Positions 1-2,577 of a stretch of DNA of 2,577 bases are shown here, in pieces. The notes under the pieces are model-generated. The model searched no databases and was not told the origin of the DNA. It was given only the letters and a program-made list of their open reading frames with translations. The DNA is from a phage. The stretch lies in sequence record PZ049715.1. One strand, written 5' to 3'. Numbering within the stretch: the stretch's first letter is position 1; the number at the start of each line of letters is the position of its first letter. The position numbers and the translations under genes are program-made.

Positions 1-34
1 AACGGTTAATTATTTATAAGGGAATTAATACGAT

Positions 35-133: not shown

Positions 134-168
134 TTCAGTGGGTAGAGCGTAGGTGTCCTGCCACTGAA
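134..168. repeat. Inverted repeat TTCAGTGG / CCACTGAA (8 bp) around a 19-nt spacer, followed by the 10-bp palindrome AAAGCGCTTT (171-180)
   Basis: Perfect 8-bp complementarity between 134-141 and 161-168; 171-180 is self-complementary. Located 60-95 bp downstream of the Cys-rich gene stop. Neither strand has a U tract after it, so it is not a canonical terminator; it may be a protein-binding site or an RNA-stabilising stem. Confidence 0.3.
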
Positions 169-228
169 TAAAAGCGCTTTCCTACCAAGTCCATAAGATA
201 CCATCTTGGCAGGAAAGCGGCTTGCTGG

Positions 229-558
229 TTATACAGCCATACGTTCACATTCCTCAGCGCACTTCATACAGGCTTTCGCGCACTCTTGGCAGTGATCCAT
301 CTGATGCTTGGCACACTCTTCACCGCAGGCTCGGCAAATTTTTGCACACAATGCACAGAACTCTTTAGCCAACTCGCTCTGGCGACTCATGAGTCTGGCT
401 GCCAGAGCACATATGTCAGCACAATCTCTGTCGAGCTCAATGCAACGGGCCATCGTTTGTACGTCGTCTTCAAGTAAACAGGCAGATGCGCATGCTTCGC
501 AAACTAGAGCGCAGTTAGAACAAGCTTGAATGCAGCTATTGAACATTGTTTCAGTCAT
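229..558 (-). CDS. Cysteine-rich four-helix-bundle copper-binding/storage protein (DUF326, Csp3-like), 109 aa, no signal peptide
   Basis: ORF with ATG at 558..556, preceded by GGAGGA four nt upstream; stop TAA at 231..229. Translation has 19 Cys in 109 aa, arranged in repeated C-x2/3-C runs (CIQAC, CALVCEACASAC, CIELDRDCADIC, CALCAKICRACGEEC, CQECAKACMKCAEEC) in an Ala/Glu/Lys-rich, helix-prone background, which is the hallmark of DUF326/Csp proteins. It sits directly downstream of a Cu-sensing two-component pair. The N-terminus (MTETMFNSC) is not hydrophobic, so the protein is predicted cytosolic. Confidence 0.75.
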   Translation of the reverse strand: MTETMFNSCIQACSNCALVCEACASACLLEDDVQTMARCIELDRDCADICALAARLMSRQSELAKEFCALCAKICRACGEECAKHQMDHCQECAKACMKCAEECERMAV

Positions 559-562
559 GACT

Positions 563-568
563 TCCTCC
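563..568 (-). promoter_or_regulatory. Shine-Dalgarno (GGAGGA) for the Cys-rich gene
   Basis: Minus-strand mRNA reads …ACTTTGGAGGAAGTCATGACTGAA…, with the SD core four nt before the ATG at 558. The TTG at 570 used by the ORF track lies inside the SD itself and is therefore unlikely to be the start. Confidence 0.6.
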
Positions 569-668
569 AAAGTTCGTATTTTAGCGTATAGTCTTGAGCT
601 GGCCTGAGGTGATCCTCTAGCAGCTCATAAATCCGACATATTCAGAGTTCGTCCGTTCCAATGGTTAA

Positions 669-686
669 CATTACAATCGTGTAAGG
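669..686 (-). promoter_or_regulatory. Candidate copper-box operator: inverted repeat TTACA-N4-TGTAA, extended to CcTTACA-cgat-TGTAAtG on the minus strand
   Basis: Plus strand 671-675 TTACA and 680-684 TGTAA are exact reverse complements around a 4-nt spacer; the pairing extends to 669/686 with one mismatch at 670/685. It lies in the cusS-to-Cys-rich-gene spacer, about 110 bp upstream of the ATG, and a weak -10-like TGAATAT (minus, about 645..638) follows some 25 bp downstream. OmpR-family copper regulators are known to bind palindromic boxes near -35. Assignment is by position and symmetry only. Confidence 0.3.
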
Positions 687-743
687 TCCCTTATGATCGC
701 TATGCGGCTGATTTTAAAATATTTACCTTTATTCGATATTTTA

Positions 744-2123
744 TTATTGGCGGGGAAATTCCATGTGAAAGCCCGTCACGCCGTCTAATGAGGTGCACCA
801 GATTCTGCCTTTATGGGCCTCAACAATAGATCTGGTAATAGCCAAGCCGAGGCCAGCGTTGCTTGGACTACCCTCGCGCCGGGCAGGATCGACCCGATAG
901 AAGCGATAAAAGAGCTTGTCCAGGTGCTCGGGCTCGATCGTCCCTCCGGGATTCTCGACGCTGAGGGTTACCGTTCTTTCCGCCTCGTGAATCGTTACAG
1001 AAATAGTTTCCCCTACCGGGGTGTAACGCAGCGCGTTGGATAACAAATTGGAGACCGCTCTATCAATCATTAATTTATCTCCCAGCACATTTCCTGCGCC
1101 TGAGACTGAGAGACGGATATCGCGTTCGTCAGCCACTAAGTGGTAATACGCAAGCAGTTTAGCAACGACATCAGCTAGTTCGATAGACGCTTGTTCGGGA
1201 ATAATCAAGCCGTTGTCGGATTTGGCCAAAAAGAGCATGTCGTCAATAATGCGTGACATACGCTTCAACTCCTCTAGATTGGAGTAAAGATTCTCCTCAT
1301 AAGCATCAATATTCCGCTTTTTGGTCAGCACCACCTCGGTGTGGGTCATGAGGTTGCTAACAGGGGTTCGCAGTTCATGAGCAATGTCCGCCGAGAAATT
1401 GGAAAGCCGAACAAAGGCATCTTCCAAGCGATCTAACATCGCATTGAAGGACAGAACCAATTGCTGTAACTCAAGCGGTATCGGTTCAAGCGGCATTCGT
1501 TCCTGCAACGACCTTGCTGACATCGATGCGGCGAGATGGGTAACTTGCCTCAGAGGCCTGAGACCGCTTCTAACTACCATCCAGCCAAGCGCAGCACTAA
1601 TTAGAGCGCTGACGCTTAATCCAACGCCGAACCAACGCTGCAAAGTCTGAAAGAAATGCGCGTGGTTAGTGACATCAAGAATCAACAGTGCTGTAAGTGG
1701 TTCGGGCTGGTCTGCTACCGAGATTCGGGCAGTCAATCCTCTATACAGGCGGCCGGCATATTTCCATTCCCACATATTCTGCTGTTCTGCGTCCCTATAG
1801 CTTTCCGGGACGTCGACTGTCTTGGGATCAGAAAAGAGCACTCTGCCATCTTCGCTCAAGATGGTCGCCGCTAAATCATGATGGGCACCTAGCAGAGCTC
1901 GCAACTGCGGTAGCTCCTCAGCAAGGTTTGCGCTGCTGCGTACGTTATTGAAAATTTTCTTGGTCGATTCGAGCTTCTCCACCAAGGCCTGCCGATCCAA
2001 CACTTCGAAGTGATGCTGGCTAAGCAAATTGAAGCTCAGCCCAGCTATGGTGAGAACTACAACCACCACAGACATGAACATGACACTCATTCGGGCGGTC
2101 AGCGAAAGGTGACGCAGTCTCAC
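744..2123 (-). CDS. cusS: Heavy-metal sensor histidine kinase (CusS/CopS family): TM1, periplasmic sensor domain, TM2, HAMP, HisKA, HATPase_c
   Basis: HisKA H-box [15 protein letters not shown] with phospho-acceptor His at 1377..1379. The following block [27 protein letters not shown] resembles E. coli CusS as I remember it. HATPase motifs: N-box [35 protein letters not shown]2-box [16 protein letters not shown]. Two hydrophobic segments ([23 protein letters not shown] and [21 protein letters not shown]) flank a periplasmic domain of about 130 aa. Start placed at GTG 2123..2121, which overlaps the upstream TGA as GTGA and keeps the family-typical SLTARM motif before TM1; ATG at 2090 is the alternative. 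The track's ATG at 2261 would overlap the regulator by about 140 nt and adds an Arg-rich, non-homologous extension. Stop TAA at 746..744. Confidence 0.92.
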
Positions 2124-2577
2124 TCCGGTGCATCCATCATATAGCCCATGCCACGCACGGTATGGATCAGTTTGTGCTCGAAGTCGTCGTCGACTTTTGC
2201 GCGCAGACGGCGTACCGCGACCTCGATAACGTTGGTGTCGCTGTCGAAGTTCATATCCCATACCTGAGATGCAATCAGAGACTTCGGAAGCACCTCGCCG
2301 CGTCGGCGCATCAACAATTCCAGCAGTGAAAATTCCTTCGCCGTCAGATCAATTCGCTTCCCAGCACGAACGGCGCGGCGCTTTAGCAGGTCCACTTCGA
2401 GATCTGAAATTTTCACGGTGGTTTGGGTGGGGGAGCCGCTGCCCCTGCGAAGCAATGTCCGGACCCTTGCCAGAAGTTCGGAGAACGCGAACGGCTTAAT
2501 CAGGTAGTCGTCCGCGCCCAGCTCCAGGCCTTTGACGCGGTCTTCCACGCCATCACGTGCGGTCAAGAACAGTACGT
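2120..2577 (-). CDS. cusR: Heavy-metal (Cu/Ag) two-component response regulator, OmpR/winged-helix family (CusR/CopR-like); 5'-partial, N-terminus lies beyond the window end
   Basis: The minus-strand frame stays open to the window edge (…[29 protein letters not shown]…); the M at 2566 in the ORF track is an internal TTG, not the real start. Visible are the end of the receiver domain (conserved K in LIKPF) and a complete winged-helix DNA-binding domain ([71 protein letters not shown]). Long stretches match the E. coli CusR sequence as I remember it. Stop TGA at 2122..2120. The symbol is family-level; copR, pcoR or hprR orthology cannot be excluded without a search. Confidence 0.9.

Follow-up and report, generated by a model that had tools for sequence, protein, structure and literature searches.

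Among the copper storage proteins, the cellular role of Csp3 is described in reviews as largely enigmatic, its genes being rarely copper-regulated (PMC11672702; PMC9470648). Regarding operators of the type considered here, the AgrR box (ATKACANNNNTGTMAT) of Cupriavidus metallidurans was defined by footprinting and interference assays (PMC7380067), and in the copper locus of an integrative and conjugative element (ICE) of Pseudomonas paraeruginosa (IHMA87) a 4-bp palindrome mutation abolished copper induction by CusR/CopR and zinc induction by CzcR (PMC11195947). The present analysis compares these systems with a 2,577-nt stretch of DNA (sequence record PZ049715.1; hereafter the window, over whose whole length positions are numbered), in which the 3' part of a response regulator gene (copR, 2120-2577), a sensor kinase gene (copS, 744-2123), a 185-bp spacer (559-743) and a small gene for a Csp3-type protein (csp3, 229-558) follow one another, all genes lying on the minus strand. 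The identities of these genes, the anatomy of the locus and the conservation and distribution of an operator box in front of csp3 are established below. The reading favoured here is that csp3 is probably a separate copper-inducible unit of the CopR regulon, standing beside the oxidase/CopB, ATPase and copRS units, the product of which would buffer cytosolic Cu(I).

The csp3 gene and its candidate CopR-type operator

The csp3 gene (229-558, minus strand, ATG at 556-558) encodes a 109-aa predicted cytosolic copper storage protein with 19 Cys residues. The family model PF03860 (DUF326) matches the open reading frame (ORF) in three stretches (E=1.3e-15, 57.1 bits, cut-off 20.4), and the best solved relative is the Csp3 of B. 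subtilis (PDB 5FIG; E=1.7e-28, residues 6-108), to which the protein aligns without gaps, with 56 of 103 residues identical (54%) and 19 of 19 Cys aligned; this agrees with an earlier note, made from the letters alone, which had taken the small ORF for a DUF326-type, Cys-rich, Csp3-like protein. A four-helix-bundle fold is predicted by this homology. No signal peptide was seen on reading the sequence and the profile (a reading made without a signal-peptide predictor), the N-terminus (MTETMFNSCIQAC) entering helix 1 directly, and the model for the Csp1 proteins of the twin-arginine translocation (Tat) route, TIGR04401, gave a partial match confined to model positions 45-150, the mature part, with a score of 39.8 against a cut-off of 100. 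Lack of a Tat or Sec signal is what sets Csp3 apart from the periplasmic Csp1 and Csp2.

The same note had placed the Cys-rich gene 185 bp downstream on the same strand with its own ribosome-binding sequence, as was found: the spacer (559-743) lies between the stop codon of copS (744-746) and the csp3 ATG, and a Shine-Dalgarno sequence, GGAGGA (563-568, minus strand), was read 4 nt before the ATG, its GGAG being conserved in the alignment. Downstream of the gene, RNA folding revealed an intrinsic terminator (167-218, minus strand) with a 14-bp stem (GCUUUCCUGCCAAG/CUUGGUAGGAAAGC) followed by UUUUAUU; the region 120-235 of the minus strand folds with -42.1 kcal/mol (z -4.19), and none of 200 shuffles folded as well. 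Neither a terminator scan nor folding of the spacer detected a terminator between copS and csp3, so that read-through from copRS can add to csp3 expression; insulation of csp3 from copRS was rejected on the same ground.

Upstream of csp3, a candidate CopR/CusR-type operator (670-685), reading as the 16-mer CTTACACGATTGTAAT in gene orientation, was recognised by a palindrome match and by its conservation. It contains the perfect palindrome TTACAATCGTGTAA (TTACA-N4-TGTAA) at 671-684, that is, at -126 to -113 from the csp3 ATG, which in gene orientation gives CTTACA-CGAT-TGTAAT. The window holds one match to this palindrome, compared with a mean of 0.02 in shuffles of the window, which bears out the candidate operator that the earlier note had seen before the small gene. 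A second CopR half-site downstream (TGTCGT) was dropped from consideration, lying 37 nt from the main box, which is not a helical multiple.

The distribution of the box was followed in 80 loci encoding relatives of the small protein (of more than 537 relatives), with a total of 945 kb, in which copper genes were mapped. The palindrome is present upstream of csp3 in 64 of the 66 loci with a Csp3 at least 76% identical, the two box-less cases being a locus cut by a contig end (L027) and one with an uncertain start (L065), and it was detected in none of 20 more distant csp3 loci. Most lineages have the box about 125-140 nt from the ATG; in a small number of divergent lineages the distance is 151-170 nt. 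Three arrangements of neighbouring genes were found, namely copR-copS-csp3 as in the window, csp3 following the genes for a multicopper oxidase (copA), a 100-aa ORF, copB and a cytochrome c, and csp3 beside a divergent cusCB-like operon and convergent with copS-copR, and the palindrome precedes csp3 in all three.

Among 31 distinct upstream sequences the arms of the box are invariant, and the central four bases occur as CGAT, AGAT, GCAT, ACAT, ATAT, TCAA, GAAT, TTAT and CAAA. Invariant arms around nine forms of the centre point to a protein-binding site, not to recent common descent. In the 945 kb there are 141 exact palindromes where about 0.9 would be expected; 62 of them lie before csp3, 27 before copR, 20 before the oxidase gene and seven before the ATPase gene. 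The comparison thus supports the earlier suggestion that the regulator would drive csp3, the box recurring in 64 of 66 loci and three arrangements and also before copR, oxidase and ATPase genes. The note had further suggested that the storage gene is the target "rather than, or in addition to" the efflux and oxidase genes; with boxes in front of csp3, oxidase and ATPase genes, "in addition to" holds and "rather than" does not.

From these comparisons we infer that CopR binds the box, that copper induces csp3 and that the Csp3 of the window stores Cu(I). In the proposed mechanism CopS, by homology, would sense periplasmic Cu(I)/Ag(I) and set the phosphorylation state of CopR. With rising copper, phosphorylated CopR, or a cross-talking paralogue, would bind the single 6-4-6 palindrome, whose centre lies some 55 bp before the predicted csp3 start, and activate csp3 alongside copRS, the operon of the Cu-ATPase and the genes for the multicopper oxidase and CopB. 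The csp3 gene would form its own transcription unit, having its own promoter, ribosome-binding site and strong intrinsic terminator, and its product, a Cys-lined four-helix-bundle protein, would sequester cytosolic Cu(I) as efflux and oxidation proceed.

Several published observations, and one feature of the promoter itself, weigh against this mechanism. The box in P. paraeruginosa is bound by three regulators with unlike outcomes, including no activation, and such a box is open to related regulators, for example CzcR or another CopR (PMC11195947). Since three regulators share the box, binding need not imply activation, and a regulator other than the neighbouring CopR may be the cognate one. 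The CopRS regulons of P. aeruginosa comprise periplasmic and outer-membrane functions (PMC7763554), the Csp3 of P. aeruginosa is without a copper response (PMC7763554; PMC9470648), and a review of 2024 describes csp3 as rarely regulated by copper stress (PMC11672702). In addition, the conserved core promoter is unlike sigma-70, which makes a second input likely.

Core promoter of csp3 and alternative readings

Between the box and the Shine-Dalgarno sequence the csp3 upstream regions have only two near-invariant blocks, (G/A)AAC at 12 nt past the box and TCG(T/G)A at 18 nt past that AAC. In the window these correspond to a core promoter candidate, GAACGG-N16-TCGGA (632-658, minus strand), which starts 12 nt downstream of the box and has a -35-like element at 653-658 and a -10-like element at 632-636. 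A sigma-70 consensus scan of the spacer returned no minus-strand promoter, and on manual inspection no conserved sigma-70 hexamer (TAnnnT) was seen at a suitable spacing from either the box or the GAAC block; a plain sigma-70 promoter was for these reasons not preferred.

RNA folding revealed a stem-loop (GAGCUGCUAGAGGAUCACCUCAGGCCAGCUC; 596-626, minus strand) where the csp3 mRNA is predicted to begin; it starts about 6 nt past the -10-like element, and the first 50 nt of the predicted mRNA fold with -17.3 kcal/mol (z -4.2). Hairpins of unlike sequence are present at the same place in most, though not all, lineages, with z below -1.9 in 10 of 14. The stem-loop would suit a role as a stabilising hairpin at the 5' terminus and fits transcription starting near 620-626.

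Two further features were observed upstream and downstream of the csp3 gene of Stutzerimonas xanthomarina (L054). Its leader, the 5' untranslated region (UTR, about 5915-5965), contains an inserted 8-bp tandem repeat (GCTATGTA) in about seven copies, and 1.3 kb downstream of csp3 lies a second full csp3 promoter module (7290-7420) with cop box, GAAAC-N-TCGTA, UTR and Shine-Dalgarno sequence, behind which follow an 8-codon ORF and a gene whose product is a membrane protein of 519 aa containing VKOR and SPW domains. In this locus the csp3 promoter has apparently been duplicated, or taken over to serve a further gene.

Regarding the sigma factor, the best-surviving alternative is that the csp3 promoter is read by an extracytoplasmic function (ECF) sigma factor of the AlgU/RpoE type with the CopR box as an upstream activator site or, in the extreme form, with AlgU as the main driver and CopR as a modulator. 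In Stutzerimonas (Pseudomonas) stutzeri A1501 the AlgU promoter of pslA, footprinted with DNase, reads GAACTC-N16-TCGGA and that of algU GAACTT-N16-TCTAT (PMC9141998); the candidate of the window has the length and the -10 element of the former, and the csp3 lineage L031 has the -10-like element TCTAT of the latter. The GAAC(G/A)G and TCG(T/G)A elements, 16 nt apart, are the sole conserved blocks of the region, a conserved TAnnnT hexamer being absent; within the 945 kb the composite motif is nearly exclusive to csp3 upstream regions and absent from other cop-box promoters, and box-less csp3 paralogues of Stutzerimonas carry a clean GAACTT-N16. On the other hand, the pattern has only about seven fixed bases, and a single match to so little information means little; the -35 element departs from GAACTT in most lineages (AAACGG), and an activator-dependent sigma-70 promoter can also be without consensus hexamers. 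We regard an ECF-read promoter as a serious but minority possibility.

In the box-less Stutzerimonas paralogues (67-72% identical; L067-L071, L083) the motif is GAACTT-N16-CACGA (or ...TCAAA) and lies about 80-100 nt upstream of csp3 (at 6001); it resembles an AlgU/RpoE-type promoter. A hybrid origin may tentatively be proposed, although we hold it to be rather unlikely: within mobile copper islands, a CopR box may have been added upstream of an ECF core of the AlgU/RpoE type, the box-less chromosomal paralogues keeping the ECF input only. If true, Cu(I) storage would be switched on by periplasmic copper and envelope stress before cytosolic overload, and the "enigmatic" Csp3 family would gain a defined regulatory logic in Pseudomonadales.

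Regarding the role of the product, Csp3 could act as a cytosolic Cu(I) donor and not as a detoxifying sink, for example by loading the Tat-exported multicopper oxidase CopA prior to export. For the Csp3 of B. subtilis, the closest solved relative, metalation of the multicopper oxidase CotA has been reported (PMC9484137; PMC11672702), one of the common arrangements has csp3 immediately behind the oxidase cluster, and the oxidase of the island has an N-terminal twin-arginine motif (TRRTFIKG); yet csp3 is also found beside cusCB/ATPase genes without an adjacent oxidase, and co-regulation with efflux suits buffering equally well, so that a donor role appears improbable.

The least tenable alternative, that csp3 is only read through from an autoregulated copRS without a copper-responsive promoter of its own, the palindrome being incidental or serving another purpose, is consistent with the lack of any terminator-like structure from copS to csp3 and with the copR box 66 nt upstream of the copR ATG, by which read-through alone would make csp3 copper-inducible, but is very hard to maintain given that palindrome, core blocks and Shine-Dalgarno sequence are kept where no copS lies upstream (after copB-cytochrome c; convergent to copS), that the csp3 of a megaplasmid retains the spacer elements with only a 3' remnant of copS, and that 0.02 palindromes per window are expected by chance.

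The copRS pair and the copper-resistance island

Around the csp3 unit, whose own CopR-dependent promoter is the reading preferred here, the other genes of the window are those of a two-component system. The copR gene (2120-2577, minus strand) continues past the window edge, and its C-terminal 151 aa, from an OmpR-family heavy-metal response regulator, contain the Pfam domain Trans_reg_C and the end of the receiver domain (Response_reg). The fragment scores 242.5 bits with TIGR01387 (cut-off 279.2), falling below the cut-off solely through truncation, since the full-length 225-aa protein (locus L001) clears it with 344.7 bits. The copS gene (744-2123, minus strand; GTG start, TAA stop at 744-746) encodes a 459-aa heavy-metal sensor histidine kinase of the CusS/CopS type, with 468.4 bits for TIGR01386 (cut-off 292.55) and the Pfam domains CusS sensor (PF21085, 50 bits, cut-off 24.1), HAMP, HisKA and HATPase_c. 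These profile checks agree with the Cu/Ag two-component identity given in the earlier note. Its view of sensor kinase and regulator as a translationally coupled pair fits the overlap that was found, in which the TGA stop of copR (2120-2122) and the GTG start of copS (2121-2123) share the sequence GTGA; copR and copS are accordingly described here as a translationally coupled pair.

The equivalog models for E. coli CusS/CusR were not reached (NF007345, 353.6 with a cut-off of 423; NF007346, 335.3 with a cut-off of 420), and the pair is therefore classed as a member of the CopRS/CusRS family and not as an E. coli CusRS equivalog. Cu/Ag signalling by the pair is predicted from its family and from the copper genes in its neighbourhood. 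All three proteins, CopR, CopS and Csp3, are annotated in RefSeq as ordinary members of known families.

Proteins identical to CopS (459 aa) occur in Stutzerimonas stutzeri A1501 (CP000304.1, about 3.66 Mb) as well as in several further genomes of Stutzerimonas. Divergent from copRS-csp3 lie genes encoding a DUF2933 protein, a Cu P1B-ATPase (TIGR01511, 589 bits), a CopZ-like HMA protein, a DUF411 protein (CopG), DsbD, the multicopper oxidase CopA (TIGR01480, 993 bits), a 103-aa ORF and CopB, so that the divergent copper-resistance genes which the earlier note had expected beyond position 2577 are indeed present in the source genome. The stretch past csp3 holds IS21, a group II intron, integrases, TraI-type genes and ICE genes. 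Because IS21, the intron, integrases and TraI-type genes adjoin it, the region is regarded as a mobile copper-resistance island, and the window is the regulatory end of this horizontally acquired island of S. stutzeri A1501.

Three contigs that are 100% identical to the A1501 island (L007, L009, L013) occur in metagenome-assembled genomes labelled Bacillota, Rhizobiaceae and Noviherbaspirillum; these labels probably reflect mis-binning, or else a very recent transfer. A search of a plasmid collection returned a single partial relative, the megaplasmid of Pseudomonas sp. FeN3W (CP136011.1; L087), in which csp3, the spacer and, of copS, only some 560 bp of the 3' part (87% identity) occupy 6001-7249. 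The module adjoins a zeta-toxin gene and IS5 and is a decayed copy that no longer allows read-through from copRS into csp3.

At the other end of the window, a convergent 99-aa ORF (L001, 12115-12414) reaches in with its last two codons and a TAA (1-9, plus strand; stop codon 7-9); a Pfam search with this ORF gave no match. The terminator scan detected a terminator-like hairpin with a 15-bp stem and a T-run at 34-80 of the plus strand, which probably serves this ORF, and given this hairpin and T-run the convergent genes, the 99-aa ORF and csp3, would each have their own terminator.

In locus L001 the copR-ATPase intergenic region measures roughly 585 bp between the divergent genes, and the cop box 66 nt upstream of the copR ATG is the only canonical box in it. 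At 9025-9110 the region has an A10 run, behind which lies a GC-rich hairpin (GGCGCCGTTGAGGCGCC). The cop-box arms also occur in this region as a 5-3-5 variant (AATTACTATCTGTAAGG, about 9040; TTACTATCTGTAA), which was not counted, the spacing not being 5-4-5. A CTGACAG-like element lies about 19-24 nt past many of the cop boxes before copR, oxidase and ATPase genes (L001, L036); it was not seen in csp3 promoters.

Significance and comparison with described systems

All parts of this locus belong to known families, and the wiring, a Csp3 gene recruited into the CopR regulon on a mobile island, represents a modest extension of what has been described. A literature search found no paper tying csp3 to a two-component system, although DNA affinity purification sequencing (DAP-seq) in P. 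stutzeri RCH2 with CopR1, CopR2 and CzcR may already list the target. Garber and colleagues reportedly carried out this DAP-seq analysis of CopR1, CopR2 and CzcR in strain RCH2 in 2018.

For a family whose genes are seldom linked to copper control, this csp3 clade offers a tractable counter-example, as it travels with copper-resistance islands and carries a conserved CopR-type operator. Here a sensor of copper in the periplasm appears to make a cytosolic sink for the metal ready at the same time as efflux and oxidation, and the known regulon of CopRS would thereby reach beyond the envelope into the cytosol. Strain A1501 and the 185-bp promoter fragment provide a simple genetic system for the role of Csp3 in vivo. 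In practical terms the locus is of moderate relevance, as islands of this kind spread copper tolerance among environmental and clinical Pseudomonadales.

Regarding the protein, the Csp3 of the window resembles B. subtilis Csp3 (YhjQ; PDB 5FIG), and also M. trichosporium Csp3 and S. lividans Ccsp, in belonging to the same length class (109 aa versus 108 aa in B. subtilis) and in being without a signal peptide, and it keeps the His pair near the C-terminal "mouth" (KHxxDHC) of the B. subtilis protein. Csp3 proteins are characterised as tetramers that take up about 18-20 Cu(I) per monomer with an affinity of about 1e17 per M. Unlike the characterised csp3 genes, which are described as rarely copper-regulated (PMC11672702), the gene of the window lies inside a mobile copper island behind a CopR-type operator.

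Regarding the operator, CTTACACGATTGTAAT agrees with the AgrR box at 15 of 16 positions including the spacing, both being 6-4-6 palindromes. The first base is C in the window and A in the AgrR box, the organism and the regulator are different, and a flanking direct-repeat half-site was not recognised in the window. The CusR/CopR/CzcR site of the P. paraeruginosa ICE locus is the same 6-4-6 TTACA-N4-TGTAA palindrome as the box of the window. Compared with the AlgU (sigma-22/sigma-E) promoters of A1501, the csp3 core promoter candidate shares GAAC at -35, the 16-nt spacer and a TCGGA/TCTAT -10 element, but differs in the last two bases of the -35 element (GG versus TT/TC) and in having a response-regulator box 12 nt upstream of the core.

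With the CopRS/CusRS/PcoRS systems (E. coli CusRS, P. aeruginosa CopRS, IHMA87 CusRS) the pair of the window shares the domain architecture and the overlapping of regulator and kinase genes, and further likenesses are the box before copR, which fits autoregulation, the divergent oxidase/CopB/ATPase genes and the TTACA-N4-TGTAA operator. The regulons described for these systems comprise periplasmic, outer-membrane and efflux functions (PMC7763554), whereas here a cytosolic storage gene has a box of its own.

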